A stretch of DNA of 64,000 nucleotides from Catajapyx aquilonaris. Lineage: Eukaryota. Made by a program: the position numbers and the translations under genes. Where the stretch lies: positions 1 to 64,000 of the forward strand of contig JYFJ02000726.1 in the NCBI GenBank assembly GCA_000934665.2. The letters are read 5' to 3'. This document shows, piece after piece, positions 18,901 to 62,743 of this stretch (its first letter is position 1; the number at the start of each line of letters is the position of its first letter). The notes under the pieces are model-generated. The model was not told the DNA's origin, made no database searches, and saw only the letters and a program-made list of their open reading frames with translations.

Positions 18901-19852
18901 TATTTGGAATGTGCCTGAGCAAGACTTCCACATCAGATAAGCTGTTTGATGAGAGGTCCAGAAGATCCAGTTGCAAACCTTGCATTCCTCTTATGTGCTC
19001 CAAACTGTTGTGGTTCAGCAACAGTACTCTCAGGGTCTTCGCAGCACTTGCAGAAGAAAACGCAGCTTCCGCCGAAAACAGCCTCAACTGGTTATGACTC
19101 AGGTCCACTTGTTCCAATCCGCTGATTCCTTTGAGCGACTCTTTCTCCAGCAGCTCCAAACTTACATTCCGAACAACAAGACGTTTGGTCCGCAGACTGC
19201 ATAAGCCATCTCGAGGAAGCAAGCGGATGGTGCCATGAAGCTGGAGAGATTCCAGTTCCAGAGTCTTCAATGCCCCCTGTGCCTATGTTTACAAAAGGCT
19301 TAAATTAATTACCAGAGAATTTTGAAAATTCGATTTAAATATTATTAGCCATGTTTGCGGATTAAAAATGGCGGTAAGCCAAACTCTGATTTTATGTGTT
19401 GGAAAAATATGTGTTTTTTTTTTGCTTTCTTTTGCTTAACTACATTTTTACTGTATTTTTAACTATTTTTAACAAATTGTAATAAAATTATGTGGCACTG
19501 TATAAATGATAACAAGGCTTTACTATGCTCCATATGTCAATACAGTATTACATACCTGTTTTTGTGACGTATTGGCCTTGATAAAAATCAGGAAAAAAAC
19601 CCTCTATAAACCTAAAAATAACTCACCTTTGCTTTAAACCTTTGAAAATCTGCGAACGTGTCGCAAACAACATTCTTGACGTCTCCATCACATTTGCATG
19701 GGAAGTACAGCACATTTGAATCACACTGTGCATCCGATAACAAAACGCTCGAGGTCAACATACAAGTCACCACAGCAAAACATCTGACACCTAAAGAACA
19801 AAAAAAATTTAAGTACTTTACAAGAAATTATTGCTTTATACTCACCGGACAT
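15955..19852 (-). CDS. Toll-like receptor, multiple-cysteine-cluster type, divergent TIR (about 895 aa); exons 19852-19846, 19790-19627, 19282-18855, 18796-18138, 18076-17814, 17722-17240, 17064-16828, 16770-16516, 16146-15955
   Basis: Signal peptide MSGVRCFAVVTCMLTSSVLLSDA, LRRNT, LRRs, internal NPWRCDC plus CPRACRC cluster, second LRR block with NPWDCS, TM ASLYAVAAITAALILFLTAVGM, TIR box1-like HTGFLLYATEDKETV and box3-like LSWGSPTFWTDLERHL; exon lengths sum to an intact frame. Confidence 0.85.
16315..16464. mobile_element. Degenerate pogo/Tigger-type MITE fragment in the last Toll intron
   Basis: TAAGACGCAC and GTGTCTTATA motifs and an AAATACGGTA terminus. Confidence 0.45.
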
Positions 19853-21497: not shown

Positions 21498-31427
<9,930 letters not shown>

Positions 31428-34333: not shown

Positions 34334-35124
34334 TCAGACTCCTATCAGTCCGCCCTTTTCTATTTGCTCTAGTGTGGCCTGCAGTTTAGTCTCGAACAAC
34401 TCGCACCTCACTGGCATCTCTAGTGCGTAGAACGGGTTCTTCAGGGCGTAATCAGCGTACAGCTCGTATATCCGCCTCAGCAGGGCCTCCACTCCAGCTT
34501 GCTTCGGGTCTGCTATAGCGATGATCTTGGTTCCGGTCAGGGTCTGGAGGCAGTAGAGATGGAATGTGTCTGACTCCAACACAGATATCCCGGAAGAGTG
34601 CGGCTCTGGGCTAAGCTGCGAGGAGATGGCATACAAGGGGTAGAACATGCTCGCCAAGAAGATCTTCTCATTGGTGGACATATGGGACCGGCCAAAACGG
34701 AGGTTCACCGGAAAGCTGTCCGAGTTCTCCAGAAGCTCCAGAGCATCACGGCCATCCTCCAGCATACGGCCCACCACCGGTATGCCATTCACAGACATGA
34801 GAGTGTGGCCCACTGTATCAAAAGATATTAATGTCCTAATAAGTTAATTGTCCTACAACTGCTGACCAAGACTTATCGTGACCTGTGTCTATCCAGGTCT
34901 TGCTAAGGTCAAAACTAGTGACAGTTTCTAGGCCTAGTCCCGCCCTCACCCTTGATTCCATCCTGCTGGCCGAAGACAACCACAATCCTCTTGTTCTCGC
35001 AGGCCAGCTTGAGGTCCAGAGGGAAGCTGAACGTCTTCTCGTTCTCTATATCCGGTGGATTGTGGTCGTAGTTGTAGATCAATCCTCCGGATTTCGACAG
35101 AATGTAGACGCTGAAGACCGCCAT
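34334..35124 (-). CDS. TRAPPC4: Trafficking protein particle complex subunit 4 (Trs23/synbindin), 217 aa; exons 35124-34950, 34812-34334
   Basis: [17 protein letters not shown]...[58 protein letters not shown]. Confidence 0.95.
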
Positions 35125-36236: not shown

Positions 36237-39200
36237 TCACAACATATTGCTGCTGCTTAAGAACCTCCACTTCTGAGAGGTTATGCTTGTCTCGCATGTC
36301 TCAGCTGTGATTCCTGCTGTTTGGAAGTAGCGAGAGTCCATGCAGAGATTGTAATTTGGATGATGGATTATCATTACTTCTCCATCCTCTTTTCTCTTCC
36401 ATTTCTGTAACATGGAAGAAATTACGTTTATCACAGCCCAGTGTTGCGTCAGGTGTCATCGGCACCATTTACTGACCTGTGTTGCAGATCCCAGACACAT
36501 CCGAAGCCTTACTGGTGCACCCGGTCGAGGATCCATTAAAGTTAAACACAGATCTTGATGTCTAATGAGGTCATCCTGGGTCAGAGACCATTCCTGGAGT
36601 ACAACAATCGATAAATGTACACTTGTTGGCAATTATTTGAAGCGGCATAGCCCATACCTGGTTTCCACCAGCATTATGGCAGGGATGCAGACCAACGTTC
36701 CCATCAGCCAGCCTTCCCATGGTATCCATGCAGAGCCTGCCCTGTTGCAGGGACCCCACGGAAAGGCCTGAACTCTCGGGAACCTTCAGTTCTGGGTAGA
36801 CATTCTCCAGGTACCAGCGGAAGGGCTTGCACTGAAGTTTCCTCTTCAGTTCCAACCTGCCCTGGATATTGCCAAATGGAACACTTTTGGCCAGAGGGAC
36901 AGCCGAGTAGTAGAAACGCTTGTACTCGTCCATCCATACTTCTGCAGCTCTCCTTGTGTTTCTGGCAAACACTGTGCCCGAACCCCCAGGGAAGGAGTAA
37001 GGATGCTGCTTACGGAACACGTGACCCACACGTGAGCATGGGATTATCTCCAAAGAACCACCGCATTGCCACACACGGAATGAAATTTCTGAAAGGTAAG
37101 TGAAGATATATTAATGCGTTTCACTTGAATATTAATTTCAATAAGGTCTAGTTAATGCTTATACATTCGACCTAATATTAACAACTGATATTTAACAGCC
37201 TCTACAAGCAAACTGTCAAAAAGTAAGTGGTTAATAATCACCATGGTGCAACAAAATTGCTAACTAACTTGGGCCATCAATTAGAACAATGTAATTGCAC
37301 CCAAAAAAATGCAGCACCTCTGTAAATACCACTGAACCCAACTTATTGAAACAAGTCAGAAAGTATAACGCATCGTATACTTTTATAGCCCCATGGATGA
37401 TATCATCTGCCTCGTAAAAATGGTGCATGAAATCAGAAAGTACCCCTCCATTGGCTACACCCTAATTGCATATTGCTTTCAGTTTTATGTGGCACAAAAG
37501 GCATCCTTTGAATTTGCCCATAATGCATTTTTCTGAATATTGCAATCCATCTCACTGAATGATCAACTCACTTGAGTGCGGTGCTCACAAAGAGTTTGTG
37601 ACAACATAATTTCTTGTTTTTCTAAGCTCTGTGTAATCACAAATCTTCCAAGTGGATTGAACTCCTTTATTAACAGAGAAAACTTTCTATTTAATAGTAA
37701 GATTGGTTATGAAACTTCGTGACTGATGGGTGGTACTCCCAACAAATTACGAAGGCGCACATGCTTATATACCTACCCAAATTTTCTCCTCCCCATATAT
37801 CCATCTGCATATCATATTGCCCCAGCTGTTTGAAGTAAAGCCGATCTATCACAAAAAGCCCTCCTGCAATCATGGGCGTCCTGCGAAACATAATACATCA
37901 TATTAACATACCACAGGCCAAATTATGCAAATAGAAGCAACCTAAATAAATGTAACCCAAACCTGATCGGACGAGTGGGATCCTCCTTTCTCTTTCTCCT
38001 CTCATCGGAAGTCAAAAATTCCCACTTGAACACAAGATTCCAGTCGAATCCTCCTCTCAAATCAGCAGAGGCGCCGATGTACTGGAAGCTGTCCATGCTT
38101 ATCACATCAATGACTGGACACACCACTCTTGTTCGATTCTTGAATATAAAACGAAATGAGCGTGTTAATCAACTACTCCTGAAAAGTGATGGGGGCAATG
38201 CATGCATAATAAAGCAAGTTCTCAAAAGCCACAAAAGAAGTTTCACGTACTTGGAAGCAGCTTTACAACATGGTAACCATAAATCATAACCCAGCACTTA
38301 AAATTCGAAAATCTAGTCGGATAACATTCACTAAATTTGAAATTAAAATATATCATTGCAAAAAAAAAGGGGGGTTCATATCTCATATAAACATCATAAC
38401 TGACAATCCAGGCATCAAGAGGCAGCAAAATCATTTTACTGCGAATCAATAAATCATGATATAATGCATTCGTGACATTGCAACGTAGCTAAATCACATC
38501 CATCCGATTCACAGTGAAAGTGACCAACCTCAGCAACTCTTTCTAGTAGTGGCTCAATCCAGTTGACATTGCATTCGCAGTGACTATCAAGAAAAGTGAG
38601 CACAGGGGCAGTGGCTGAGTTAGCTCCCCTCACGCGGGACCTCATCAGACCCTCCCTTTGTTTGTTCCGCAGCACCAGAACCTTCTCCATCTTGGCCAAT
38701 TCTTGTCCATCCGATGCTGCAGGAGAGAGATAACATTGTTTTAAAGAATTCTTAGGGCAATAAAAGGTTTCACTACTGTACACTTCCAAAAATCTGAAGA
38801 ACAATATACCGGTACTCAAGGTTCCCAGCCGAGAGCAGCTAGTAACTGTCCATCGGACGAGAAGGTGTGTGCACAGTTGCACTTCCACCATAATCACCTG
38901 CTCCCATGTAATTTAACCTTAATGAATGAACAATGCACCACAACTCAAGTCAACACTTCCTTCATGTTCACCCGGCATTAACACATAATGAGTCATGTCT
39001 CATTTTAACTGCTAAAAATGGCTTATGGAAAGTAGCAATTTATTGCTTATTCCCAAGTCGGGCTCCCTTCAACCTTCGAAAGTCAACATCCTTCCCATGT
39101 ACAGCAATTATTATGAGCCCCTACTTCAAGCGTACAAAAAAACTCACGGTCATCACTGAAGTCATCCACCAAGATGATCTCTCGGATAAGGTGCTCAGGG

Positions 39201-42200
39201 CTACGGTTGAGCACGCTGCAAAAGAAAGCCGGGCGAATTAATATCTCGCAGAAACGTTTCACCATTGGGAGACACTAAGTGCTCCCTAGAAGATGGCACA
39301 TTAAAAAAATTGCCACAATAGATAAAGGCGGCAATAAAAAAAAAAACTAACCTGACCACTGTCCGAAGGAGGGTAGAACGTGCCTCGTTGTGGAATGTGA
39401 TTATGACCGAAGTCTCAGGAAGATCTTGGCGCCACTGCTTTTTTCTACACCTGTAAAAAAATGGTAGCTAATTAGTAACAAGCAGGACAAGCTTTGCATA
39501 TCAGATGGAGTGCTACCAACTCTTTGATGAACAGAAATCAGACATGTTCACCTTGTGATGTACAGTGCATTCATATATCAATGTCTTTGAAATAAGTGTT
39601 TATTTGGTAGAGTGCACCGCTCTCTCCATTTACACGCAGCAACTAGAACAATTTCCTACCCATCTGCTTATTACGTTCCAGCCCAAATGAAACTGCAAAC
39701 GGCGTTCCTTGCAACACTTCTTCCTGAATAATGCAGGCAGACTCTGCATTTCCTGCTCATATCATGCAACTTGAACAAGTACCAAAACAAACATGCGTGT
39801 TGGCTACCAGAAATAGAGCGCAAAATTGCACCATTTATATCACTGGCCACATCCACATATATGCTAATGTCTCATATACCGGCCCCTGCTCCTTTTCACG
39901 CACCAAGCAATAATAAGTTGTATATATTGAAATAGATGTGCATGTAAAAAGAGGTCAGGTGTCGAACTGGAACGGTTTTGTGACCCACAAAGTGAACCCC
40001 ATGAACACATAGAATGGCAGGTAGTGAGCCAAAACGTGATTTTCCTGTACCACACCGCTACGTTCCATGCGTGACACTGACAGACGATTGGGCTGATTAC
40101 AACGTTCGGTTTTACAATTTTTTAAACCACAACCTGTCAATTGACCATTACATTTTACATATTTATTAGAGGCTATATTAAAATACCAGGGGTCAGGATT
40201 TTAAATTTTTTTGGTCCAGTTTGCAGACATTCATCTGAATTGCAAATTATTTGGAGTGGCTAATTTTTAATAAAGATGTTAAGAAAAATGGTGGTCATCC
40301 ACCCCCCTAAAAGGGCTCTGTTCCTTCTAATGCTAATGGGGTAAAGCTAAAAAATTACAAATAAAGATGTTAAGCTAGATAAAAAAAAGCAGGACCAACT
40401 GGAATATTTCAACCCCTGAAATTAGATCAGAAGCGCATATCCGCGAACATCCCAAGTTACTCAAAGTAGCAGCGATTCCCAAACCCGCTATTTGGCTATT
40501 GGACCTAGTTGAAAAGATGGGACCGCTCCCGTTCCCATCGGGGTCATCCTCTTGTCCAATTAAGATGGAAGGCCAGAAAGAAGAGTGAGTTTTTTGGCAA
40601 GTGTGGGTCAGGGAAAGCTCTCCAGGAGCAAGCGCTGCAAGCAGGTCAATGGGACGTCCGGCAGGTCACGCTATCCTGGCCGGCCAAAACTTGCTCCTTC
40701 AACTAGCGGTCACTTCTTTTTTTTCCCAAACACCCCCCCAAGGTGGACACCTTGGCCCCAAAAAGCCCACATCGGCATATGAAATACCCAAAGGAATGCA
40801 CAAGTACCTACCACGCAAATATCGCATGGGCAATAATGGTTGTTTTCGAAATGTTTAGGCAACAGTGTTACGAAGTCAGGAAAAAGTGTTACCTGGAAAG
40901 CACCATTTAGGTCATCCAGGGGAAGGTTAGTTTCTTATATTTTATGTGGTCACGCCCGTTTTCAACAAAAGCAACGAACCGTAAAGCATCTTATGTAATT
41001 CAGCGCCTCTGAAGGGGTCAGTTCACACGCCATTACGAAATGGGTACAAAAATTGGTATAAAACACTCCCATTATAACAGTCTCCTGGTCATGACCTACG
41101 ACAAACTTGCCGGTAAGGTCAAAGAATTTTTAGTCCCAGAAACCACTTTTAAGAGACGCAAACGACCTGTGTACAGTCGCTCAAATTAGCCTCCAAGAGA
41201 GAGGCAAAGCCACAATAACGTTCGTTGGCCAGCGGCTTTGGAGGCTAATTTGAGCTTCAGGTCTGCTACCTTGGATGATCACTTGCATGAGTCGACAAGG
41301 AAGATAAAGCAACTCCATACACAACCACCATTAGCAAATTTCTGCAACCGGTACTACTGTAGTCACGGAGTCTGCAACATCCCGGAAATGTGAACTTGTT
41401 AGTTATCGCTTTATACTCTTCTTCGGACTGCTTCACGTGGTGTGACCAGGAATTCAGGTTAATGTTGTAGTGGTTTACTAGTCTGCAGTTTTCACTATTA
41501 CTGACCTCGAGGGGGTTCTCCCACACGAAAGTTGAGCACCAGCTTAATTAGAGGGGGGCTCATCAATCATCCTGAGGAACCCAAGCACAAGAAGCCAACA
41601 CCGACGATAATAATAGGCTCTAATAACCGTCGATCTACAAGTGACGGAATGAGCCGTCAATCATAATACCCTTTGTCGTCCCAACGATTTCCTTCGCGCA
41701 TGCAGTCTATGCGCATGCAATCTGTACGCATGCGCCACCGTACAGTGCCGGGCATTAATTCCGTCACACTGCTAGCGACGTTTTCCGTTGCGGAAGAAGT
41801 ACAAATCGAAGTGATAGAGTGCGAGCCGTGCGAGTAAGAAATGGTAGCCCTTGGGTGACATCACTGGCTCCATTGCCCCCCAGCAGGTGACGTCACTCAA
41901 GGCCTACCTCTTCTTACTCGCACGGCTCACACTTCGATTTGCACTTCTGCCGCATCAAAAAAAATGTCGCTAGGAGTATGACGCGATTAATGTCCAACAC
42001 TGTACGTTTTTTGTCATAAATAAAGTGTAGGCCTACTCACGCTGCGTTCCTGGTGTCCGGCACAGGTCGATCTGAGGGCAGCCGGTCACTCTCAGCCTGG
42101 TTGAACTTATTCCTGGCATAGGCGTCCTCTCCGTCGCGTAGTCCACCGACGTACGCCTTTTCATCGAAATACCTCCAAGCCAATCGCTGGTCTTCATCGG

Positions 42201-45051
42201 ATCGGACCGAGCCAGCTGCTTCAGGCCGATGGAGAGGCGCCGACGACGGGGGCGCCAGAGGAGGGTCGTCGCCTCTCCCCCCGCTGCTCAACCCTCCAGC
42301 TCCCCCGCCTCCCTCCCCTGCCGACGCCAGTCCTCGAAGTGCTTCAGCCTTCAGACGAAGTGCCCTCTTGCCACCTGCTCCACGCTCGTCCTGAAAGACA
42401 TTACAAGGGAAACGGTGGACCTCAGACAACTTCCTAGAAAAACTCGCTGTGCTCGGCGGTTGCCCGAGCGCAAAATGCAAAATCTTATTTTGGCCATAGC
42501 TCGAAAATGGCGGGGAAATTTGCATTTCTGAGGATTTTTCGCTTCGCAATTGTCGACAATAGCTTTCCAATGAGCCATCTCCCGACCCGCTATGACGTTG
42601 GGAAGTGCCTATATACAGCCAATGGGAAGCAACTTGCTGCCAAAAAATCTTCCGAGAAGACGCTTCTCGAAACTGTGCAACAGGAGACTTCACACGTCAC
42701 GGTTAGACGCATACGTTTGCATGTATCCTGCCCAATTACACTTGATTGTTACCGTCAGAACCGGCTCTACAGAGGATATGAGTGGGTTGGGACAGGTACT
42801 CTAAAGAAGCCTAATAAGTTCCGCTGGTGATCACGAACTTAACAATTCTCAGTCTATTTACAGGGTCCGTGCCAAGAAATATAGTTGCATGCCCCTGCCG
42901 TTCAATCGATTTACATAATGATGCAGTGCTCTATAGATGCCTTAACAAGATAGGTCGGAAATTGCGTGTTTCAAAAGGCGGAAGAATCCTCTTTGTCAAT
43001 AACTCATCAAGGGTTTTTGGCGACGAACGCCATAAAAGTATTAAGCAACTAATGAGCCCATGTTCTAGTCACGACAAAACGGCCTAAATAACAGGTCTCA
43101 TTCCACGCTAAAAAAGCAGCGTGGACAATATTTCCACGTCGCTTTTTATTCGGCACACACAAAGAGAGGTTGGTAATGAAACCGCAAGATGATTGTCTCA
43201 GCCTCCTGAATTCATGACGTTGGTATCTCAGGTAATCAACTTGAGAGCTGGCGGAGAAAACTAATTATGAATCGTGCTACGCCATGGGCTCATTTCGACG
43301 TATGTTCCCAGCTGTTGTCTTCAGGTAATATCGTGAATATATGCACTCTACAGTGTAGCTTTAGCATAAAGCAGGACTGAACAAAAAAGCCCAAAGCCAT
43401 AAGTTATGCAATGAAAATACTGTAATGATAATTGCACAACTTGTGAATTAATTCGCCATACACCATATACGAAAATGGAATATTATTTTTAATTTTAATA
43501 TTACACATTGACCTTTAACGGTATATACGACATCAGTTTGCTGGTTCATTACTAGCAATTAACGATAATTAGAACGCAACATTGACCTGAATTTTTTCCC
43601 CCAGCGCAATTGCGCACACTCAACCCATATGCAGCATCCACTAAACTTTCCCCCAAATGATGAATCTCTGAAGTGCCGACAGGTCAATTTTCTCCGCGAA
43701 ATGAAATCAAGGACGCCTATTTACACAAGGTGTTTCAATTTTCCATCTTAAAGATTATAGCGAAAATCTAGTTAACATTTCAGTTAGAACATGGCGACAA
43801 AAAGAAGAAAAAAAATGCAGAAATTTATCACTAGAAGAGGATTAAGTGGCTGTACAACCGACGTTAATGTGGTGCAAACAGGTTTCTTATGCACTGCAAC
43901 TCTTAAAGTTATGACTTATGAGTTATCGACCCTCAGGTAATGCTTCGATCATTAAATGAAGTGATGTACAGTACATTAGGCTTGTAGAATATATAAATCA
44001 ATCATAAACAGCAAATCCTGTGTTATATGAATACGCATTGTACTCCAGCAAATTACTGCATTAATCATCAAGTACACTGCGAGGTAACCACAATTTCGCA
44101 CCTGGCACTCCGTTTACCTAATGCGCCCATTAATTTTCGCAATTATATTGTAGTTCCAAGCCCAACTTGTAGGAACACATCTAAAATTATAATTTATGCA
44201 TCATCCTACTGCATAATCGGAGATCTTGCCTTAATTCGTGTTGATAAAACCAGCAGTAATTTTCATAGTCTGATTAAACTTTTTAATCAACTTCCCTCTG
44301 CTATTTTTTTCTTCTTACTCGCCATTAAATTATGCAACTTGCTCTGGGCCATGTTACGCTGTCACGCCTAAATATTAACTTCACTCATTGACCAGCAGCA
44401 CAGCAGCCCTTTCGTATAGATCCTGTACCATCAAATGTCAGGGAAGACATGCTGCAGTAATCAACATTGTACGTGTCCTTCCCCCCGTTGAATTAATTAC
44501 AACTCTCAGGACAAGCCCTGGATATTCTGCACTGTAATCTGGTTTATAAATAGTGGCCTGCTACGTATGCTAAAACGCCAAAGATAGGCCAAGAAATTAA
44601 TATAAATTCTGCATCAGACAATTACGAGTTTAAAGCTGCATTCTTTATTAACCGCTAGAAGCAAATGCGTTACCAGATTCCCCGTAGCTCCAAGCCGAAT
44701 GCAATATTCATTAAGACCCATGGAGAAAATTCTTCGCTTGCAACAAAGGGAAATACTTCACTTGAATTGCATGTGTAAAGGAACTCTCAAAAATCAGAAT
44801 AATTGGACTGTTAATATTGCAGAAACTCAAAGGTCAAGTAATGGCCAGAAGCTGCATGCCTCATTTATTAACTCGCGGAAACGAATTTGCAAAGTTGTGA
44901 TGGTAACAGGAATACTATTTTTCATACTATTTCAACAAAATTACATGATGTAATTAATATTATTCAAATGTAACTGTTACAGGATTTTGGCCCACAATGC
45001 TAATTAGGCCTTACCTATTACAATGCAAACGAAAACACATCTCACACAGCA

Positions 45052-45112
<61 letters not shown>

Positions 45113-48100
45113 TACACCATCCTTTTACCATGAACCAGCAGACAGAGACGTATACATGTTGCCAATTGATTGACGTGACGGCTAAATCCGATTCCATATT
45201 ATGGCCTTTTATGGATCCTGAGCTCTATAACGCAACGCTAATTATAACGCTAATTTCCCTGATAATCAAAGCCATATTGCATATTAATTGCTTGCCTCGA
45301 AATGAATAATTTCCGCAAAAGGGGAGCATTTCCCGGTTCCGTTTTCGTTATTTGTCCTCACTTCCAACGATTTCTCTCGCCCCCCCCCCCNNCCCCCCTC
45401 TTAATCATATTGGTATTAAATGCCACGACCACTAATAGAAATTGGCACTTTCATTAAGTGGTCAGCACCTTCTTCTAATAGCAAATTACGGTTGGACATG
45501 GGGCGGTCCTATTATACAACTTTCCCAGTACAAGGTGCTTTCTGACCAACCATCCAGTCAAGAACGCGGATATGCTCAAGGATATCTCCCTTGATTCAAA
45601 ATGATAAATGTACACAACTCTGCTCGTAAATTGGACAAGTTGCATAAGCCTCACAAAAATCGTCACTATATTTGCGAAAAAAATATATAAACTAGTAGCA
45701 GCTAGTGACGTAACATCTGCACTGGATTGGCACGTTAACTTCAACAAACGCAACTTGACAAGTTAGAGAGTTTCACTTTGCAGGGGCCTCGGCACTCCCC
45801 TTTTTTGGTAAACACAACTGCTGCATCTCATAAAAAAATATGACTCCTCACATTTTCGGCTGGAATGTTTGCCAAGTTCCTCATGCAAAAAAAGTGCCAT
45901 ATGTCTGCATGATTTCCTGTAAGTTCACTTAGAAAGTACAGTCAATTTATATCAAATTCAAATGTATACAATATATTGTAATGCATATTGTACATCAAAT
46001 ATCTCCTGTTTTCATTTGTGACATACTTGTGCACTTGGCATGATTGTCGATCACCTACAGCACCCATCATATGAGGCACTTCATTAAGCCCTCCTTTCCT
46101 CCAATTAACACTGGCGTGCCTAATAACCAAATTATGGCACACAAACACAGGTCAGTGGGGAGTGGGACAGGAAACGGCGGCTGTGGCAACACGTGACATG
46201 ACGTAACTGAAAGCAGTCGGAATCCACTTTCGCCGTCGATTGAAGGTAAGGCCAACGGGACTATGGAAAGAGGAGGAGGGAGGGGGGGGGAGGGTAGATA
46301 GAGAACATGTAAAGTAGGCGAGCAACACCACTCAAAGAGAGAAAGCCCTTCATACCATCCCATTCCATCTCCTCAAGGCCGCTCGCCTGCAGGCAACCTC
46401 TCTTTCTCCTTACGAAAGGTCACCTTGAGTGGGTCTCAGTTGCCTATCGCCCAGGATAAACCCTATCATTCTTGAAGCTAAAAGTTCCACACTCATGGAG
46501 ATCGGCTGGTCCGCGCTCATTGAGATCGGCTGGTCCGCGCTCATTGAGATCGGCTGGTCCGTGCTCATGGAAGAGCGGCTGGTCCGTGCTCATGGAAGAG
46601 CGGCTGGTCCGCGCTCATGGAGGGAGGCTGTTCCATGCTCCTTTAAAGAAGCTGTGCATGATGAACATTCCTCCAATTTGTCCAATTGTCGTCACTCTCC
46701 CTTCCGGACAGTAGTAGCGTCATATTTCCGGAGAGGAGCCATGTCACGCTCGTTCAGAACATGCCTCCCGCCTTTTCCTTGCAAGCCTTGCTCTCTCCTA
46801 GTTCCCATCACGCCTCCTCTTATTCTCGCCAGCCATTATTCCGTCTATCGCGATTATCACATCCGCGGCCTCACAATCGTTTTCCCAGGAGCACGATGGT
46901 CCTATTATGTGAGGCAGGTCGAGGTCCACCACCCATTGCGTCAGTTCAAAAAAACGATACTTGCTTTCTTGTACGCCTCCTCAGCCATATACAGCAAAGT
47001 TTGGTAATGGCCATTTCATGCTAGACAACTTTATAGCATTGTTGGATATTACGACTGAGTTTCAGTGGTGCAAACCGGACTATAAAGAGGGAAGTTGGCT
47101 AATACATATACGCAGTGGATATGGCTTCTAAAAAAAATGAATCACATTTTCATTCCTTTGAACTGGAAGGATGCTGCGTGTCTGAAATTCCAAATTCGTA
47201 ATGGACTCGTGATGAATGTCATCCCCGTTACACATTCAACATGGTATCTTTTTTTCGCTTCTCCGTTCTTCCATTAGGCGACATCAACATCACCAATACC
47301 TTTTCCGGCAAAAAAAATCCCGTTAGAGGGACGTTCCATATGTCCTTTGGTCAAAAAATAGACTAAATTTGGTCGGAGTATGATACGTTCCAAATCGCTT
47401 TAACATTCGAAAGGCACCCCGTAAATCATATGAAAGCTATCCTTATCTTTACTCTTGTTCCATTACTAATCCAGTATCCAGATATCGTAATCCCTATAAT
47501 GCGTCATCCTATGTAAGCATGTCGCACTAATCATGTTCTCAGTTCCAGAGTAAAAGTTGTTCACTCTATAATAACCAGTTGGAAGCAACATTTGCGATTG
47601 CTTCTTCTCAACTTGTTACCACAGACAATACCTCTTGTATTGTCTCAGGTATATTGTCTGTGCTTGTTACTTGAACAGTCCATAACTGATACACTGGAGT
47701 ATCACCCTGTACAAGGCGTGTTAAAGGAATAGACCCACAAGTATTCCTTTTCAGTTTCAGGCATCGTACCAAGCATCATCCAATAACGTCACGCCACAAT
47801 AAATTCCAATTAACGGTGTCTGTTTTTAGGCTGCCAACATTGGCCGATGAGAAAATCACTCAACGATGAGAAGCACACTTGGATTCCCATGAGTTCCTCT
47901 AAAATTCTCCTGAGGATTCCTCAAACAAGTGCTTCGCTTCCAGGAAATATTCTCCATATTCCTCTGCATGCATTTGGTGAATGTTCCATGTTGTTATTGT
48001 TCCAAAAATTTCACAGCAACTATCCAAAATAGTGCCTGCTTGTCTTATACAAAAGACAAACACCTTCGACCAATCTGATAGCGCTAAGCCCAGTTTTTCC

Positions 48101-51100
48101 CACGTCACAACAACAAACAACGAACGTCACACCAGCCATGATAGGTGAAATCACCAGCCAACCAATCCGGAACAAACGTCCAATTCCACACATCCTGAAT
48201 AGGAAGAATCGTTTGTTTGAAGGCCAGATCAAGGCTCCAGAAAGTCTTTTGTCTGAGAAGATGGCATTTTCCATCATCTGTTCCCATCATCATCCAACAT
48301 CGTGCCAATTGAGGATCTTAACTCGTCAATTTTCACCGCTTCATATACTAAAGCACACCGACCCGGATTTTACCGTGCAATTTCTTTATTTTGTCCAGTA
48401 TACAATGTGTGGCACATATTTGCGATACAGTTTCCCTTCTGTCATCACTTTCTCTCGTCCCTTTTGTACACACACGATTCTTGGCTCCCATTTATTGTGT
48501 TTCTCTCATCCCACGAACCGCCACTTTTACTTTTTTTGTGTGTGTGTATGGTTAGAACATGTATTATTGTGGGTGATGCAGTTTTTCCAGATTACATGGA
48601 AAGTTTCCTTATGCAAGTCGTGCTTTTAGAGCTATTTCTGACAAAACGTGAAAGTGCGACTTTTCTAGTGCAAAAGCTGCAGGACACCCATTGCGAATCG
48701 TGTGAAAAATTTAAACACAATTGATTGTGTCTCAACAGGGCAGGTCAGTATCCAAGTCACTGACCTTTCCATGACCTGCTGTTCAAAAAACTGCAGTCAC
48801 GCATATTGCAAAAACGCATAAATTAATAACTTTATAGTTTCCAGCACATGCGCTACCGGTACCTAAAAACTATTATTTGAATCACATTTCCTACATTTTT
48901 TTTTTTTTTTGCATACTCCTAACGAAAAATTTCTCACGTGCAATGGACCATCACGCACATATTCCATATTTCGTATGTGCGTGTTCCGTAAAAATTTATT
49001 CCGCGTGACACCCCTTCTGACTTTTTCTTCCATTTTTGGTTCCGGGAAATGGCCCGGAGTTTTGTTGGGGAGGGAGGTTCTGGTATATACAGTGGGGGTG
49101 GTGGTGCTGGTAGAGAATAGAGCATGTTGGGAGTTGATGGTGGATCGATACACTTGGCGCCGTTGAGGGTTGCAAAGGGTTGGAGCACAAGAGCCTTTTT
49201 TTTTTTTCAAAAAAAAAAAAAAATCGACAAAACTCTTGACCTTTGCCCATGCATTTATCCAGGCGATGCCGGACATGTGAAAGCTAATCCGAAATTCCTT
49301 TCCGAAAAAGTTGGAAACGTTATCACGTTCAAATGGCCCTACGTTATGCTGAATCGCCAAAAAAAAAAGTGGTTATGGAAGAAAAAAAAAACTAATTCAA
49401 TGCAAATGTCACGTGAAAAGTAAACTTTCTTGTTGGGTTTGAGAACTGCAAAAATGCAGATGATTTATGAGCCTTTCCAAACGTTACGATATGGCTCTGC
49501 ACAATCGGGATGCCGGATCCTGAAGAGTCTCCAAGTCCCATATGTCCTCGTTTCAAAACTTGTGAAGTTACTGACCCCTACTTTTTTTCCCCACCTGAAC
49601 CTGTCTGCGGTATCAATAAATCGCAATGTATAAATCACACTCGCTTTTTAAAATAAACCAAAAAAAAAAATGATATCATCAGACCAGTACATTATTTTTT
49701 GAATAATTTCGTGCCATATCACGTACATTATGCCCTTACTGATAAACCAAGCTGAACTCTGCTCTCCTTGAATCCCATCCGTCGCATCGATTCAATTCCC
49801 CCCACCCTGACCTAAGACCCCCTCCCAAAAATTGTGGACTTAGCCGCTTTTGTTCCGCCACTAAATCCCAATCCTCCTCTAATCCAGCACCGCCTACAAA
49901 TTCCATAAACTCCAGGCCTTGGCTTGCCCTGGATATCACAGTAGCTCGATCTCCGCATGTCCATTAAACTCAACGAAGCTTAGAGCCTTCCATCAACCCC
50001 CCCCCCCCTCCCCCCTGTCCCTATAGCCCTATAGCACTTTTCGCCCATGGAAGATATATACCCTGGAACCGTTACTCCTCAAATGAACTGCATCGGGCAC
50101 GTGCAACGGATGATGTTTCATGACCTCTTCTCGCTCTCCACTAAACAAGGATGTAATGTTGGAGAAAAGTCGGGTCCAAAGCTCAAAAGACACTTCCCTT
50201 GGCCTCTTTTATTTCTAGGAGGAGGCTTGCGGTGCCTGCAGTTTTGTGTAAATCCTACCAGGAGGATTTTCTCGAGAAGCAATGGGACGTAGCAATTGGC
50301 TCGAAAAAAAGGCAGCAGCTATATCCCAAGTAGCAGGGCTTCTCAAAGGAGGAAGAGGAGGCACTATTTTCAATGGTAAGAAACAAGCTAAGCCAAGGCA
50401 ATATGACACAACTTTTAATGTGACAACCCGCCGATTTACCACACAATATTATTTTTCACGCATAGATGGCGCACACTCCTGCACTCTCCTGCCACCTTCA
50501 GCTCGACAGCGATACTATCAGGTCGGACAAACATCCGATTAGGAGAAACCATGTGACAGGGATTCGATGCTCATCATTCAACACATTATCCGAATATATT
50601 GGGGGGATCAGCCTACATATTGTGCCCGTTTGCAAAATCTGGGATTGCGCAGGTTGCAGATACGGCTGCAGCCCTGCAGGCTGCTGCAAAAAAACACACA
50701 TTTCAATACTGCGAGATTATAAAATAATCATCTGATGTCGCCGGAAGGTACATAAGATTAAATACTGCATGTCTGCCCCAGAGTGCAGTCATTATTCAGC
50801 GGTTTAACTGTGATGAAGACAACGTCAATAATATTTAACATGATTTAAACTATACCATGGCAGCGTGTAAAAATTATGCTAAAATTAGCATACTTTTAAA
50901 TCCCTATTCAATTATGATTCATAACACACTGTATGTGGTTTAAAAAAATTGTGCGGTATTTGAATTATTCACAAGCAGACCACATGCTATAAGCCGCACC
51001 ACATTAAAAAAAAATAATGCCATGTGTTTTGAATTTAAGCGCATGTGTTACTAAACATTACAAAAGTGAAGATATTGTTGCAAGCCCTCAGTAACATATC

Positions 51101-54100
51101 AATATTTGAATATTTTGCTTATACGCAGTGGAAACTTGGCTTTAAAAAAATACCACAGAATAAACAAGTCATCCTCAAGCATCCTGCACACTGTAATGAA
51201 CAAGTTTCGCTGCATCCACGATAACTTTTAAACTAATTTAATTCCATCCATTATTGAAATTGTGACCTGGGTCCTCTCACCCTTTTTTAAAAAGAGGCCC
51301 TGTCAACAATCGTCCCCATTACTCTCCCACGTCCCGACTTCACAAGCACCCGGGTCGATCCCATGCCCAAGTCGACACACGCTCGCCATGTAACTGCAAA
51401 ATTCCCTGGAAGTGAAAAATAGCGAGTGGAGGAGAGGGGGTGGTAGGGGATGGTAAGGGGGGGGGTAATCCCAGGAGCACTTTCCATCCGCCTGGATCGT
51501 CATGGACGAAGGGGAAAAAGGAGAGCCCCCTGCAATTGACTTCGCCTCCGTTCACTTTCACCCTACCAGCTCAAGACAAGATCAACGGGGATCTGGAATA
51601 ATTGGCTCGAAGAGAATGCCTCCAGAGAAGAAGCGGCAGGTCCCTCCCAATAAATGAATTGAGAAATATTGTGTTGCGACATGAATATGATGCAACTGGG
51701 TGGTCCCAATACTCCAGAAAAGCAACAACTAACGATTTTTGATGATGAGAACAATCCATTATAAAGAACTGGAGCAGTGTACCAGCACGTATATTGGCTT
51801 CAATATCAGAGCAGCTAGCGTTGAAATGAAACAAGGTACTGCACCGTCCTGGGTTGGATATCTCGATCCAGCAAGCGGATAATTGCATTCGACTGCTTCA
51901 CCCCCGCGGCAAGAGAAAATGCACAAACATGACTTCAGCAGAATAATCATTACGACTGAAAATCCTCTCTTGCATGCAGCTACCTCGTAATTGGTTCCAT
52001 TATATGGCAATGAAAGTTTTTTGAGCATCAAATTGTAAAGTGGTTCTATTTAAAAAAATTAACAGTATTATGTAAATAGCATTTTTCCTGATAGATATCG
52101 AGTCAATATACATTTTTTCAAAAAATTATTAATGTTAGATGGATGTGTCTACAAGTAACCGCACATTTTGAAGCCCAATAAGACAATTTACACCCAAACG
52201 CAATTATAGGCCTTCTGAATATTAACCTCCACGTAATTTATCCTACCACAACTGACAGGCTGACAGGAGGAAGTGGTTATTCCAAAATGCGAGGGGTGCA
52301 TATTTACGAAGGTTGGGGAGCCCACAGGATGGTATTAAAGGGCATATGATGAAGTGTGAAGGAAGCTGAAGTCCACACTTCCCAAACTCAGATGAACATG
52401 GCAGGGAACTGGTAGAAATGATATCCATTTCCACCATTGAGCCTGAACAAGTACTGTGCCTGATATTGCTCAGTACATCGTGTACATGTTTACACCCCAT
52501 TGCGACATAAATCCGCGAGAAAATTTTATTCCAGCGTTTCCTGTGAGCCCGAGAGAGAATCTAAACTGTCAAAAAGGATATGCTGTGGCTGCAGCAGCTT
52601 GACACATGCCAACATTTTGGATGTACGACTCCCATTTTGGCCTTGTTTTGCCTTAAAATCGCAAAAAGCTTCCGTTGTTTTGGGGGGTGGCCTGTACATA
52701 GTAACGAACGTAACTAGGGCCAACGACCCCCAGGGCAACCGGTGTCAACAACCTCAAGTATCGAGGGTCAACAACCAGTTCCAAACAGTCAGAGACCCGG
52801 TGACCACTGACCGGACTGGACGTATATAAAAAAACCCTCCTGCAGTCCCAATGTCCCAAGAGGCACCGACACCCAAGATGGGTCCTAAGTCCCCTCCTAA
52901 GGCCCACCGTAGCTCCAAGGGCACATTGGCAGCGAAGGCAGCAGCCGCCTTGAGCCTGACAGCAGCAACCAGCCAGATCCCGGACATCAGCGTCAACCCA
53001 TCGCCTCCTCAGAACCAGCAGACGCAGGGCCGTCGGGTGCAATACCGACGTATCCTCCTGAATGCCATCGCCCACCAGAGGGGTCGTCAAGGATGCCTCC
53101 TGAAGGACATCACCAGCTACATGTCCAGCCAGATCGAGCAGGGGCCAAGCAAGTCTGAGGTGTTGAAGGGACTGTGTATGGCGCTGAAACGGGCCGAGAA
53201 CGACGGCATGGTGGTGTCCACGAAGAAAGGCACGTACCGGCTGACCACCAGCGGAAAGAGGACCGCAAAGGCAGTGGAGATCGGCGCAACCGGTAAGGGA
53301 AGGGGTACCCTGAGGGAGTCCACCCTGGAGCTGATCGAGCGCCGCAGACGCCGCCGTCGCAGGGGCGGAAGGAAGAAGGGCCGCAAGGGACGCAAGGGAC
53401 GTCGCAGGCGCCGCCGCGGAAGGAGGGGACGTCGCGGACGTGGACGCAAGCGAAGCCGCAGGGGCCGCACAGCCCGCAGCAGCCGCAAGACGCGCTGAAG
53501 CTGAGCAGCAGACCACGACGAGGTCACCGCAGTCCATCGGAGGTCGACCGCCCAAACCGAACCAAAAATGTACATTACGTTCGGAACATATCCAAAATTG
53601 TATGTAAGCAGTCGCAATGAAAACAAGTACAAAATGTAATAAAAACAATTATAACCGACATGCGTTCTATTCCTAACAATGGTCGGTCCTGCGGCCATTT
53701 GTTTGTTTACCAGGTGTTCGGGTGGCGATGGCAACTTTGTTGGGTGGGGACGACCGGTTGTTTACTTTGCCCATTTGTATGGAATTCTTCAGAATTCTCA
53801 ATAATGGGATCTCATGGAGATGTCCTCATACAACAATAAGAGTGAACATTGTCAACAGTGTCAACAAAAATGTATGGTATAGTGTGTCGATAAGGCATAA
53901 TTATTTAGTTTGGAGTAACACCTTTGTGGAAAAAAAATTACCACACACAATTCTTTCACACAAGTCCAAACGACCCGCACGTGGTCATAAAAGATAGTTC
54001 AAGTGCGCTGAGCAGGTCAAAGAATCCACAACGGCATTTGGAGTAAACAAGATCATTATTTTCTGCTTGGCGAACTTGCAAATGTGCCCTGCAGCTTTCC

Positions 54101-57100
54101 CCGGTCCCCAACTCAGCAGCGGTGCGATCATATTTGCAGAGAATATCACTCCCTCCAGAGTACCTGGTGGCCTCCCAAAAGCTCTTCCAGGGGAATCTGG
54201 GGCTAGATATCATTTTCTGCATGCAGGAGTACATCCCATTCACAGAGGCCAACAAAGCCTCCCCCTGTACCCATTCAAGTGTCCGTAATCCACCATTTTG
54301 CGGCACTTTTAGCCGGTGTTACAAAGTTGCTAAACAATAGATGCGCACACTGGATATTGACCACTACAGGACTGAACATCACTGTGTGAGCTTGTCGGTT
54401 ATTATGGAAAACCGGTCCGTACTCTATGCATTATGCATGTGAATAGCTTCCTCCCACACATACATACACAAGTATATGTACCCCCAACTGGTTTATTCTC
54501 TTCAAAACTGACGTCTGGAGTCAACAATCCGCAGCTTCTTCCCCTTGTCCATGACACTGATCAACACCAGCTATCTCTTGGCTGCCAGGATGTGACAGCT
54601 CCCCCAGAAGCCACCGGACTTTCCGAAGAGGTCAACAGTGACTGCCGCCATAAATCCGATTATGGCCAAAATCCCCAACACATTTTTCTAGGTCGCTATT
54701 CAAGTATGGTCAAGCTGGTCCACCCTAGGCCATTTTTCACCGTATTGTTCAGCATGGACAGACATGTGAAAGCCTGTTTCGCCAGCTGCTACTCAACACA
54801 CGGTCCACAGAACGCATTCTTCGACTTCTGCACATTTATTCTAATTACATATCAGAGCCCGACTCTCAAAGAAAATCCATTTTTTTTTTTCTTCTCAGTA
54901 GTATACCATTCGTTTTCCGCTCCAACGAACCTTCACTCAGCAAATTGGTAGCCTCTTAACACTAAGAAAAACTAGATTGTAGGCGGAGTCCTCTAAAACG
55001 TACGTCTGACTTAAGCAATGGGAATGTGAAAGTTGAGGGGGCTATAATGCTGATAGTAGCCACACCCTTGTAATAAATGGCCGAATAGCTATTTAAAATA
55101 TATATCTCCTAATAGGCTTATTCTCTCCATCGGATGTTTGTCCGACCTGATAGCATCGCTATCGACCTGAAGGTGGCAGGAGTGTGCAGATGGATTAAGC
55201 GCCATCTATACGTGACGAATAATACTGAGTGGTAAATCGGCCGGCCATCTCATCACTGTCATACTGATTATTATCAATTTTGCAGAATTTTGGCAATGGG
55301 TTCACTACACTGTAAACCTCAAAACATTAAATGAGCATCACTGGTGCTATTTTAATGTTTTGTGGTTTACAGTGTAGTAATATGGCCCTAAGGTTTCAAC
55401 CCTTGTTACAACCTTGTTTAATTGCCAAAACAGTGTGAATAGCTCACATTTTATAACATTTGTCCATTCTTTGCCCCCCAGTCATACCATGCGTGGACCT
55501 CCCAAAATTATGGCCAGACCCAGCTTTTCGATTTCACTGGGGGGAAAAAAAAGGGTGGTCCTGTCACAAAGCGAGAGCTCATTTTGTGCATTACTCAACT
55601 GTCCCATTCATTACACACTTGGCTGCCGACAAAAGGGCATGCTGAGCCAGCTCATGCCCCTGCCAGAACTCCAGGGACGTCCCCCCCCCCCCCCAAAAAA
55701 GGGAGGTGTATTCACCTGCCTTGAATTTTTTGGGAGGACGGATACAGGACAGGAGTCATTTCCTGCACACAAAACACCTCATTCATATATGGAAGAATGT
55801 ATAGAAAAACCTTATATGTTTACTGGATATAATCCGCAAGGGCATTGACACCTATGCGTTGGTGCATGCGAACCAATTCATTGCACCCACAGTTTTCCCA
55901 CACATAAAAAACCCACACTTCACACTGTAAAGAATTCATCCTGGTAGAGTCATGCACCCTGCAGGTACATGAAGCACCACATTAATTGGGCCAGACAATT
56001 TATGATTTTCAAACACAGCCATCAGAGCCGGCATGTGTACTGCTGCAAAGTAAAGGTTCGTAAAGCACCGCTGCTCTTAGAATTCTATGCTGTGCTGGCA
56101 TCTGATGAAATATGAATGAGGCTAGAATAACGTTGGTATTGATTGTGATACCAGTGCCATGCAGCCAAGAGGCATCCCCCAAAAGAGCAAACGGAACGTG
56201 CAAAAAATCACATGCTGTGTGAAGTGTGGTGGAAGAGGGGGGGAAAAAATGTGTGACATTTTCTCTCACAATATTTCCTGTTCGTTGAGTAAGGGTAATT
56301 AGGCATAATGTGTGCAATTTCTCATTACTGGTTTTGATGGCCTGCGCATCCCACTGTCTCCCACTGCAATTATTCAGATGCCACTGATTTTCATCTTAAT
56401 ATGAGTTACCCTCCTTTTGCAAAATCTGGGACGAGAAGTCCCGTGTTCCCGTTAGCACTTCACATCGGCTAATGAGCATTCTTCAAGCCTGTCAAGCACA
56501 TGGCTTGCAAGTGTGCTGTCATGCATTATTTGCAGTGAGTATCTTAATGACTCTATAACAGGAGGGATGATAAATTTATTTCTTAACAAACCGTGCCAGA
56601 ATATGCTCATAATAAAATTTCCAGATGTCGATAATATCAGACATGCTCTGTACAGTTATGTATGCAACAACTCCTACGCTAAGATACTGTATGTGTCCCA
56701 GTTCCCCCTGTTGCATTACCATACCTGTTTCCATATCTATTATCCCAAAATCTGATTAACTCTGCTGCCACACACACTGGCAGGCATGCAGCAAGTATCA
56801 GACCACATAACCTATGCATCCTCCTGCATAATGAAACCACAACCCCCGTTGCCATCATTATGCAGCCTATCAGTTTCATCAGGCAAGGTGGTAGCAAATG
56901 ACATGGATGGAAGACAATAGGCAAAAGTTGTGCGTACAACACCCGGTGGCCCCGAGGCACCTTCTCTGAATAAACCCCAACAGGGCATTAGTCTAACGAG
57001 ACTGTCACAGGTGAGCTTATTGATTACTTGCAGTGTACTGACACGGTAGCAGCTACACACTTTGAGTACTTGTATGCTACCAGTGGTTCCTCGAGGTACA

Positions 57101-57978
57101 CCAAAAATTATGAAGGCACCCCTTTACATTCAGTATAACAGGGGGGTTGGATCTTAAATTTTTTGTCCACATGCAAAGTTTTCACTCCACAGACTTTCAT
57201 CCGGAGTGCAAATTGCTGACTTGGAGTGCTTAATTTTTAATTATTGGATTTAGCCGTGTTGAAAAAAACAGGACCAACTGGAGTGCAACATTTGCACTCC
57301 AGGGCTCAAGTCTGCAGTGCTATAAATAATTTTGAAGTGCAAATTGCACCTTTGCATCCATATAATTTTGACGCCTGGTATTCTTGTGAATACTTCATAG
57401 TGAAAAGCAAAATAGCAAATAGAGTTACATTACACTTCAACAATATTATGACGTACGGTAATTATAAAATATTCCCATTCATACGCAGGTTTATTTTTAC
57501 AAGTTTTAATTGAGTTAGCGGCTCTCGTCATCGCTGACTACCCCTTATAGGGAAATGTTGTGATGGTGATGATGATAAAATATTAATAAAACTACACATG
57601 CTAGGAAACTATATGATATTCATTATTTTCACATGCACCGCTGCGATTTACTGAAATTAACATAGAGCGCAGTAATGTGTACACTGCCATTCCGCAGCAA
57701 TCGCCAGACAAGGTAATTTCATCTCATGATCTACTCCCAATAATAACATCAGCTGTCTTTTTTTTCAAGTATGCAATGCAGTACCCATTATTATTACGGT
57801 AATTATTATTCGCTGGTACCCCCCATTCATTTGGGAGAGGCCGTGACCCTCTGACAATTAAGTTTGTACCGACCTGTGGTTTGGTGTCCCTGTCGAGTTG
57901 CAGGTAGTAGAAGAGGGCACATAGTCCGAAGCTGAGAACGAGCATTAACCTCAGATTCCTCCTGAGGACTGGCGCCAT
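36237..57978 (-). CDS. GALNT2: Polypeptide N-acetylgalactosaminyltransferase 2 (pgant2), about 601 aa; exons 57978-57874, 42390-42041, 39450-39352, 39215-39148, 38716-38529, 38138-37963, 37880-37777, 37088-36658, 36593-36477, 36404-36237
   Basis: Type II anchor [68 protein letters not shown] (DxH); [19 protein letters not shown]; ricin-B lectin domain; phases consistent. Confidence 0.95.
41179..41255. repeat. Short element with an 18-bp inverted repeat
   Basis: GCTCAAATTAGCCTCCAA ... TTGGAGGCTAATTTGAGC. Confidence 0.65.
41743..42002. mobile_element. Fold-back MITE, Tc1/mariner-like, copy 2
   Basis: TA-CAGTG...CACTG-TA; internal inverted repeats such as GAGCCGTGCGAGTAAGAA / TTCTTACTCGCACGGCTC; homologous to 11901-12177. 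Confidence 0.8.
45053..45110. repeat. (ATT)n microsatellite
   Basis: Perfect ATT run. Confidence 0.95.
46492..46622. repeat. Minisatellite, about 5.5 units of 24-25 bp
   Basis: Units CTCATTGAGATCGGCTGGTCCGCG and CTCATGGAAGAGCGGCTGGTCCGTG. Confidence 0.9.
50431..50548 (+). mobile_element. Dispersed repeat family, copy B
   Basis: Shares the core with 28061-28246. Confidence 0.7.
52851..53498 (+). CDS. Histone H1-related protamine-like (PL-type) sperm nuclear basic protein, 215 aa, intronless CDS, nested antisense in GALNT2 intron 1
   Basis: Winged-helix pattern [29 protein letters not shown]...[24 protein letters not shown]; last 52 aa contain 30 Arg; TATATAAA at 52823; AATAAA at 53638-53643. 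Confidence 0.82.
   Translation: MSQEAPTPKMGPKSPPKAHRSSKGTLAAKAAAALSLTAATSQIPDISVNPSPPQNQQTQGRRVQYRRILLNAIAHQRGRQGCLLKDITSYMSSQIEQGPSKSEVLKGLCMALKRAENDGMVVSTKKGTYRLTTSGKRTAKAVEIGATGKGRGTLRESTLELIERRRRRRRRGGRKKGRKGRKGRRRRRRGRRGRRGRGRKRSRRGRTARSSRKTR
55121..55310 (-). mobile_element. Dispersed repeat family, copy C (inverted)
   Basis: ATCGGATGTTTGTCCGACCTGATAG...CTGAAGGTGGCAGGAG...GCGCCATCTAT is the reverse complement of the core. Confidence 0.75.
55304..55378. repeat. 75-bp palindrome abutting repeat copy C
   Basis: ACTACACTGTAAACCTCAAAACATTAAA / TTTAATGTTTTGTGGTTTACAGTGTAGT. Confidence 0.75.

Positions 57979-61786: not shown

Positions 61787-62743
<957 letters not shown>

Follow-up and report, generated by a model that had tools for sequence, protein, structure and literature searches.

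A candidate H1-derived protamine-like gene lying antisense in a probable first intron of GALNT2

What kind of protein, if any, is encoded by a short intronless reading frame that appears to lie inside a glycosyltransferase gene and that ends in a block of arginines? The question is raised by positions 1 to 64,000 of contig JYFJ02000726.1 (assembly GCA_000934665.2, deposited as Catajapyx aquilonaris, forward strand), the 64-kb stretch that is called the window here. A plus-strand open reading frame (ORF) runs in it from an ATG at 52851 to a stop codon at 53496-53498. In the reading developed below, to which we give about an even chance of being right, this ORF is a single-copy, intronless and polyadenylated gene for a sperm nuclear basic protein of the protamine-like (PL) type, which would be derived from histone H1 and lies antisense in the probable intron 1 of GALNT2.

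Coding status and layout of the gene

The ORF comprises 215 codons (predicted product 215 amino acids, 24 kDa), contains no intron and is bounded on its 5' side by an in-frame stop at 52827; a recount bore out the extent and the composition given for it in the first-pass annotation. The length of the ORF is no argument for coding, because five frames (three of three forward and two of three reverse) are free of stops across the whole G+C-rich, repetitive tail and because an antisense frame spans the gene and exceeds it in length (52653-53648, minus strand; 331 codons without a stop, 294 from the first ATG). This Ala/Ser/Leu-rich antisense frame matches no Pfam family and is best explained as a shadow of the sense codon bias, because TTA, CTA and TCA codons are entirely missing from the sense frame. 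Codon usage was scored as log-odds; the table was trained on exon pieces of neighbouring genes that had a Pfam or PDB match, 1,152 codons in all. Over residues 1-163, the sense frame reached +0.367 bits per codon, the highest value of the six frames, followed by +0.096 for the second. The mean of 500 intronic control windows of equal length was -0.555 bits per codon (standard deviation 0.211, maximum -0.062); these controls are less G+C-rich than the ORF, which makes the six-frame comparison the fairer test. The G+C content at the three codon positions of the globular part is 0.54/0.45/0.80, with flanks at 0.42-0.45. Given the codon score, the periodicity of G+C at third codon positions (GC3) and the Pfam match described below, the ORF looks like a true coding sequence, beyond what is expected by chance. 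Its features are the following.

52823..52830, plus strand: TATA-like element (TATATAAA), assigned by position only, 28 nt 5' of the first ATG and 55 nt 5' of the Met10 codon
52851..53498, plus strand: coding sequence (P0001), 215 codons and stop, assigned by ORF and codon-usage score; G+C by codon position 0.58/0.61/0.75
52851..53039, plus strand: N-terminal basic arm rich in Ser, Pro and Ala, residues 1-63, assigned by sequence; model confidence (pLDDT) below 50, no modelled secondary structure
53040..53243, plus strand: putative H1/H5-type winged-helix globular domain, residues 64-131, assigned by Pfam PF00538, model topology and Foldseek
53244..53339, plus strand: hinge, residues 132-163, assigned by sequence; candidate processing site by analogy only
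53340..53495, plus strand: protamine-like tail, residues 164-215, assigned by composition
53638..53643, plus strand: polyadenylation signal AATAAA, assigned by sequence, 140 nt past the stop

The codon for Met10 (52878) has an A at -3 and a G at +4, and a start at this position would give a protein of 206 amino acids. If TATATA serves as the promoter, transcription would begin at about the first ATG and translation from Met10. The ctgcag immediately 5' of the first ATG could, as an alternative, be a splice acceptor. At the other end of the gene, Rfam detected neither a histone 3' stem-loop nor any other credible RNA family in 53400-54100 at E ≤ 10, and at gathering score the window as a whole gave no histone 3' stem-loop. 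The AATAAA without a histone stem-loop, as described in the first-pass annotation, thus stands, and the predicted mRNA would be polyadenylated and replication-independent, as is characteristic of PL proteins.

No second copy of 52000-54500 exists inside the window and no dispersed repeat was found; the repeats of this segment are short tandem ones only (unit 8-12 bases, at most 3.7 copies). No poly(A) remnant was seen 3' of the AATAAA, and an origin as a retrogene or mobile element is without support within the window. The observed/expected ratio of CpG is about 1.0 over 53000-53999, covering the gene and its 3' flank, and 0.4-0.7 in the adjoining 500-base bins. This retention would fit a patch that is unmethylated in the germ line or resembles a CpG island, or selection for CGN codons, and is given little weight. 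A search for sequencing runs listed none as RNA; the single run that it gave, X1 (type unrecorded, contigs totalling 32 million letters), contributed one 250-base contig over 53408-53657, which differs in one letter and has its 3' end 14 nt past the AATAAA; it could be RNA or sparse DNA, and nothing is concluded from it. Elsewhere in 50000-56500, X1 gave no cover except for short repeat-like pieces at about 55.1-55.3 kb.

The predicted protein has the tripartite layout of an H1, with an arm (residues 1-63), a globule (64-131) and a basic C-terminal part (132-215). Residues 1-61 of the arm include 9 Pro, 8 Ser, 5 Lys and 2 Arg and carry two motifs of phosphorylation type, one S-P-x-K (Ser14) and one T-P-K (Thr7). 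The hinge ends in ...RESTLELIE, the sole acidic cluster of the protein, which immediately precedes the arginine run. The 52-residue tail consists of 30 Arg (58%), 6 Lys, 10 Gly, 3 Ser and 1 Ala among others, has no Pro and no acidic residue, and is basic at 36 of 52 positions (69% Arg+Lys); released, it would weigh 6.58 kDa. Serines and threonines stand near its C-terminus (…RKRSRR…, …ARSSRKTR). These residue counts agree with the Ser/Pro-rich arm and the tail of 30 Arg in 52 residues noted before. The tail alone matches no Pfam family, protamine families included. Canonical somatic H1 tails are rich in Lys, Ala and Pro; the Arg/Gly tail is not of this kind, and the protein is therefore not a canonical H1, the same trait that separates PL proteins from H1. 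A true protamine is not present either, as the whole protein has 215 residues, 42 of them Arg (19.5%), and a globular domain, so that only the cleaved tail would qualify. PL proteins are defined in a passage of PMC13148410 by a winged-helix head followed by a C-terminal half that is disordered and carries a protamine-like stretch of 30-50 residues rich in Arg and Lys, a description which the present protein matches with its tail of 52 residues.

The arginines of the tail are encoded by 18 CGC, 4 CGT, 1 CGA, 6 AGG and 1 AGA, i.e. by CGN in 23 of 30 cases, so the predominance of CGC and CGT noted in the first-pass annotation was confirmed. Lewis et al. reportedly proposed in 2004 a frameshift in a Lys-rich H1 tail as the origin of Arg-rich tails. 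The two alternative forward frames of the tail are rich in Ala and acidic residues and in Pro, Gln and Gly, respectively, and neither resembles a Lys/Ala/Pro-rich H1 tail. No sign of a recent frameshift origin is thus seen, which is weak negative evidence and silent on older events; the CGC runs could also derive from shifted GCC runs. These frames and the mainly CGC-encoded arginines agree, if weakly, with the earlier argument that CGN usage speaks against an origin by recent Lys-to-Arg frameshift.

The winged-helix domain and the weighing of readings

The assignment to H1 depends on residues 64-131, for which a winged helix is likely and for which H1/H5 is the best-supported subtype, at borderline strength. 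Linker_histone (PF00538) was the sole Pfam family found with the whole protein at E ≤ 10, covering exactly these residues, and other weak Pfam rows had E-values of at least 0.067. The alignment spans positions 3-73 of the 74 of the profile, without frameshift or stop, in all three queries (the whole protein, residues 1-163 and residues 55-140). As a control, no family was found in the four other-frame ORFs of the locus, and PF00538 was absent from the 121 remaining ORFs of 100 amino acids or more in the window. In the ESM Atlas, 25 of the 30 hits obtained with the whole protein belonged to the Linker_histone set, the named clusters being 'protamine-like', 'spermatid-specific linker histone H1' and 'testis-specific H1 histone', and Linker_histone clusters still led when both arms were taken off. 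AlphaFold modelled the same topology, three helices followed by two strands forming a hairpin, for the whole protein and for residues 55-140, which is the order of elements of a winged helix with its β-hairpin wing. With the domain model, Foldseek gave winged helices almost exclusively and placed the H15-like ones of KAT6A and MORF at the top of the PDB matches together with the linker histones H1, H1x, H1.0, H1.4 and H5 of chromatosomes (probability 0.9-0.98, TM 0.5-0.6). Of the divergent H1 winged helix with two cysteines announced in the first-pass annotation, the fold topology and the cysteines were recovered (Cys82 and Cys109, the only two of the protein, both within the putative globular domain), while the H1 type is reached at borderline Pfam strength only.

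Several results weigh against an H1-derived sperm protein. The Linker_histone check that had been proposed for the globular region gave 22.6 bits with the isolated residues 55-140 (E 1.2e-4), just 0.2 bits over the gathering cut-off of 22.4; residues 1-163 scored 20.5 bits and the whole protein 19.8 bits (E 9.6e-4), which is under the cut-off. The ESM Atlas scores (0.90 for the first hit with the whole protein, which has 189 of 256 features in common, and 0.85 with both arms off) are leads and not proof, since values of 0.85-0.90 are reached by 4-10 of 100 shuffled proteins. The AlphaFold models were built from the single sequence and are of low confidence, the mean pLDDT being 53.5 (whole protein) and 62.4 (residues 55-140). 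The E-values of the top Foldseek matches range from 0.03 to 0.4, and none of the E-values is below 0.03; the full-length model, in which the globular part has a pLDDT below 50, was uninformative (best E 1.0). VIA-align, which is independent of Foldseek, listed almost nothing but winged helices, of generic kinds (cullin, MAGE, Stn1, MCM and others; Z ≤ 8) and with the first H1 at rank 29, and therefore supports the fold class, not H1 specifically. Against PDB sequences, the best match of the domain was the KAT6B winged helix 8e4v_A at an insignificant E of 0.31, and that of the whole protein was the tail of a ribosomal Plectin/S10-domain protein at E 0.048, all rows of the whole-protein search being tail-driven or insignificant. 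Arg-rich tails are found in nucleolar, RNA-binding and viral capsid proteins as well, and the 450 nt 5' of the gene contain no half-site of a cyclic-AMP response element, no CCAAT box and no GC box.

Relatives were likewise missing from the libraries searched. No match at E ≤ 0.001 was obtained by phmmer among 1.84 billion representatives, none by word-indexed searches of the 'near' length class with the whole protein, residues 1-165 and residues 55-145, and none of the 599 pattern matches in a scan of metagenome contigs was confirmed. Empty searches are expected even with canonical H1s in the libraries, because the domain scores about 20 bits against the profile of its own family; they indicate that no close orthologue is contained in the libraries searched. 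The case shows that genes of this kind can escape whole-protein sequence searches and stay unannotated inside introns. As far as the sequence allows a judgement, the gene is probably a lineage-restricted new member of the PL class.

Among the other explanations, a replication-independent H1 variant with a role outside sperm, for example in nucleated erythrocytes as H5 and H1.0, in oocytes or in embryos, with an incidental Arg-rich tail, is unlikely, yet the least improbable of those considered. It draws on the same winged-helix evidence, and an intronless, polyadenylated gene without a stem-loop is typical of H1.0 and H5 too (for H5, a passage of PMC11607694). The named Atlas neighbours, in turn, are forms from sperm or testis. 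With 58% Arg, no acidic residue and no Ala-, Pro- or Lys-rich stretch, the tail is also protamine-like and of a kind not known from somatic or oocyte H1s. Somewhat less probable still is an ORF that is unexpressed or non-functional, be it a lineage-specific sequence of young age, a gene copy in decay or GC-rich DNA that happens to stay open. Openness is cheap where five of six frames are open through the tail, and the absence of relatives from all searches fits such an origin; against it speak the codon bias and the GC3 periodicity, both specific to the sense frame in the two thirds of the ORF that are not repetitive, the full-length Pfam domain without frameshift or stop and the properly placed and oriented TATA and AATAAA.

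The domain might also be a genuine winged helix unrelated to H1, the Arg/Gly tail serving to bind RNA or to direct the protein to the nucleus or nucleolus. This would account for the many unrelated winged helices of equal Z in VIA-align, for the sub-threshold Pfam score of the whole protein and for the ribosomal protein tail as its top PDB match, and is nevertheless improbable, given that Linker_histone is the only Pfam family recovered, over its full length, that the sequence-aware Foldseek puts H15-type domains first and that the arrangement of arm, globule and tail is the one of H1. A gene derived from a virus or transposon, with an Arg-rich nucleic-acid-binding C-terminus as in some capsid or core proteins, is suggested by the tail composition and the intronless, nested position and by nothing more. 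The single copy in the window with short tandem repeats only, the lack of polymerase, integrase and capsid families (Pfam) in nearby ORFs of at least 100 amino acids and the match to a cellular histone family make it highly improbable. Expression and proteomic data are nearly all that would separate these alternatives from an H1-derived PL gene.

Comparison with known proteins and a proposed function

PL-I proteins are known from surf clam, mussels, tunicates and the fish Mullus surmuletus. Their tails are mixed in Lys and Arg, as opposed to the sharply bounded Arg/Gly block found here, and no sequence relationship to the present gene was detectable in the searches made. They are alike in the basic N-terminal arm, the winged helix and the C-terminal stretch rich in Arg and Lys, and the PL-I of M. 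surmuletus is the vertebrate H1-related case covered in a passage of PMC4584325. All three types of sperm protein, histone (H), PL and protamine (P), are described for fish in a passage of PMC11607694.

In some molluscs, tunicates and a liverwort, the protamine-like stretch is cleaved off (part of PMC13148410), and protamines, of 3-10 kDa, are often products of an H5-related PL precursor (part of PMC13251019). The H1-derived protamines released in this way, such as Mytilus PL-II* and those of tunicates and Marchantia, likewise combine an H1-type head and an Arg-rich peptide in one ORF; their cleavage is covered in the same passages, whereas in the present protein the hinge before the arginine run is no more than a candidate site.

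The H15-like winged helices of KAT6A and KAT6B (MOZ and MORF) gave the best Foldseek matches (7y43_A, 8e4v) and, in the case of KAT6B, the best PDB sequence match. These domains are N-terminal parts of large acetyltransferases, and no other part of that architecture is present here. The globular domains of H1x (2lso), H1.0 (6la2, 7xx6, 9ipu) and H5 (7xvm) are also among the best structural matches in Foldseek. The gene shares with those of H1.0/H5 and H1x the intronless structure, the poly(A) signal and the lack of a stem-loop, but the tails of these histones are rich in Lys, Ala and Pro instead of Arg and Gly, and the similarity is below the reporting level of phmmer. H1FNT (H1T2) and HILS1, the mammalian spermatid H1s, are comparable in their divergent winged helix, intronless gene and presumed germ-line use, and HILS1 is also nested in an intron of another gene. 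Atlas clusters named after them are among the nearest neighbours (0.84 and 0.81; scores below 0.9 are leads only). The host gene differs, and there is no alignment-based evidence for orthology. A true protamine of fish is encoded as a free peptide, which has about 30 residues and no globular domain. The tail resembles the salmine- or clupeine-type protamines of teleosts in its 58% Arg accompanied by Gly and Ser, and its size is within the range of 3-10 kDa given in the consulted part of PMC13251019; it differs in being the C-terminus of a 24-kDa protein and in matching no protamine family of Pfam.

For an H1-derived PL protein, the following mode of action is conceivable. The gene would be driven by its own TATA promoter, and the poly(A) signal in place of a histone stem-loop would permit expression independently of S phase, as in spermatids. 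The H1/H5-type winged helix might dock on linker or nucleosomal DNA, while the Arg block would neutralise DNA phosphates and condense chromatin like a protamine. Serines and threonines of the arm and near the end of the tail are candidate phosphorylation switches for deposition. By analogy with the cleaved proteins, a cut at the acidic hinge before the arginine run may free a protamine-like peptide of 6.6 kDa. That such a peptide is the actual protamine of this animal's sperm, i.e. a vertebrate protamine in the form of an H1 C-terminus, is a rather doubtful proposition.

Keyword searches of open-access text returned no paper on a gene of this type within an intron of GALNT2. That vertebrate protamines originated from H1 has been argued mainly on invertebrate and plant cases. 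Were the tail indeed cut off at the hinge and used as the protamine of this animal, the gene would provide a living vertebrate example of the route from H1 via protamine-like proteins to protamines, for which cleavage has so far been documented only in molluscs, tunicates and a liverwort. The joining of a vertebrate H1-type winged helix to a sharply bounded protamine-like block would be a directly testable case and would raise the questions of whether the block is released, in which manner the protein is deposited and at what rate such genes turn over; if unexpressed, the gene is only a curiosity.

The host gene and the remainder of the window

The identity of the surrounding gene follows from two minus-strand exons. 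The one in 36574-37110 matches human GALNT2 with an E-value of 1.2e-83, compared to 6.9e-56 for GALNT1, and 115 of 151 aligned residues are identical by hand count; the one in 42040-42696 aligns to residues 30-123 of human GALNT2. Judged from these alignments, the host is the vertebrate GALNT2 orthologue, located on the strand opposite to the H1-like gene. The parts recognised, and those predicted from them, are as follows.

36.2-37.1 kb, minus strand: lectin exons (Pfam)
37.7-37.9 kb, minus strand: Glyco_transf_7C piece (Pfam)
38.5-38.9 kb, minus strand: GT2 glycosyltransferase piece (Pfam)
about 39.3-39.4 kb, minus strand: further GALNT2 exon, recognised
42041..42390, minus strand: GALNT2 exon 2 (residues 30-123), acceptor ...tgtctttcag/GAC (phase 0), donor /GTGAGT
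42391..57873, minus strand: probable GALNT2 intron 1, 15,483 nt, inferred from phase-compatible donor and acceptor
57874..57978, minus strand: candidate GALNT2 exon 1, 35 codons, inferred from codon score and phase-0 donor CAG/GTCGGT

No upstream Met and no membrane anchor of its own were found in the ORF of exon 2, and the first exon therefore lies further 5', at higher coordinates. The candidate at 57874..57978 begins with an ATG that has an A at -3 and a G at +4 and encodes basic residues followed by a hydrophobic stretch resembling a signal anchor. It has a codon score of +0.195 and a GC3 of 0.71, the top of nine anchor-like candidates, the others being at 0.014 or below. A crude signal-anchor scan with a threshold of 1.9 yielded the eight others and missed the preferred one, whose hydrophobicity of about 1.85 was determined by hand; the preference is based on its codon score and phase-compatible splice sites. 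Three of the candidates, located between exon 2 and the H1-like gene, score like non-coding DNA (-0.44 to -0.65), and the only others with scores near zero are located beyond 53.5 kb, as is the preferred one. The 35 residues of the candidate have no sequence match in the PDB. With this predicted first exon, the H1-like gene is quite probably located antisense inside a GALNT2 intron 1 of 15.5 kb (42391-57873). Of the nested position reported previously, the GALNT2 identity and the opposite strand are upheld, and the numbering as intron 1 is probable, depending on the predicted exon 1.

With the candidate first exon, the whole GALNT2 gene would be compact, spanning about 22 kb (36240-42390 and 57874-57978, minus strand). 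An Ets-family gene is encoded at 21501-30105 on the minus strand, with a Pointed/SAM exon at 29707-30105 and an Ets domain split over the ORFs 22079-22519 and 21501-22193; this Ets domain is closest to human FLI1/ERG (E 2e-45). GALNT2 and the FLI1/ERG-like gene show the organism to be a vertebrate, and since these genes are small, its genome may be compact and fish-like. With neighbouring genes that mark a vertebrate, the contrast drawn in the first-pass annotation with the HMG-box-derived proteins of Drosophila is beside the point.

Small minus-strand ORFs of 35-99 amino acids were scanned with Pfam for 137 of 213 cases; those left out lie above 52.75 kb, together with one ORF containing an N. 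A match to the Sgf11 zinc finger at 48595-48744 on the minus strand (E 1.4e-4; 21.7 bits, cut-off 26.4), which falls in the putative GALNT2 intron 1 and was considered as a separate gene between exon 2 and the H1-like gene, was attributed to chance, as the ORFs concerned are without coding character. The window contains four N letters, at 15807, 28559 and 45391-45392. The two tRNA-Met genes have identical Rfam scores (56.1 bits), and the second of them overlaps the start of a MORN-repeat ORF. The further genes and gene pieces recognised in the window are listed here.

465-1355, plus strand: protein with an RNA-recognition motif (RRM; Pfam)
2554-2625, minus strand: tRNA-Met (CAT)
5783-6508, plus strand: MORN-repeat ORF, stop to stop
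5808-5879, minus strand: tRNA-Met (CAT)
9026-10775, minus strand: DEAD-box helicase (Pfam)
14765-14836, plus strand: tRNA-Ser (GCT), called by ARAGORN only
17048-19282, minus strand: leucine-rich-repeat protein (Pfam)
34337-34843, minus strand: exon of a Sybindin/TRAPP subunit (Pfam)
61787-62740, plus strand: LURAP-domain ORF of 318 codons (Pfam)

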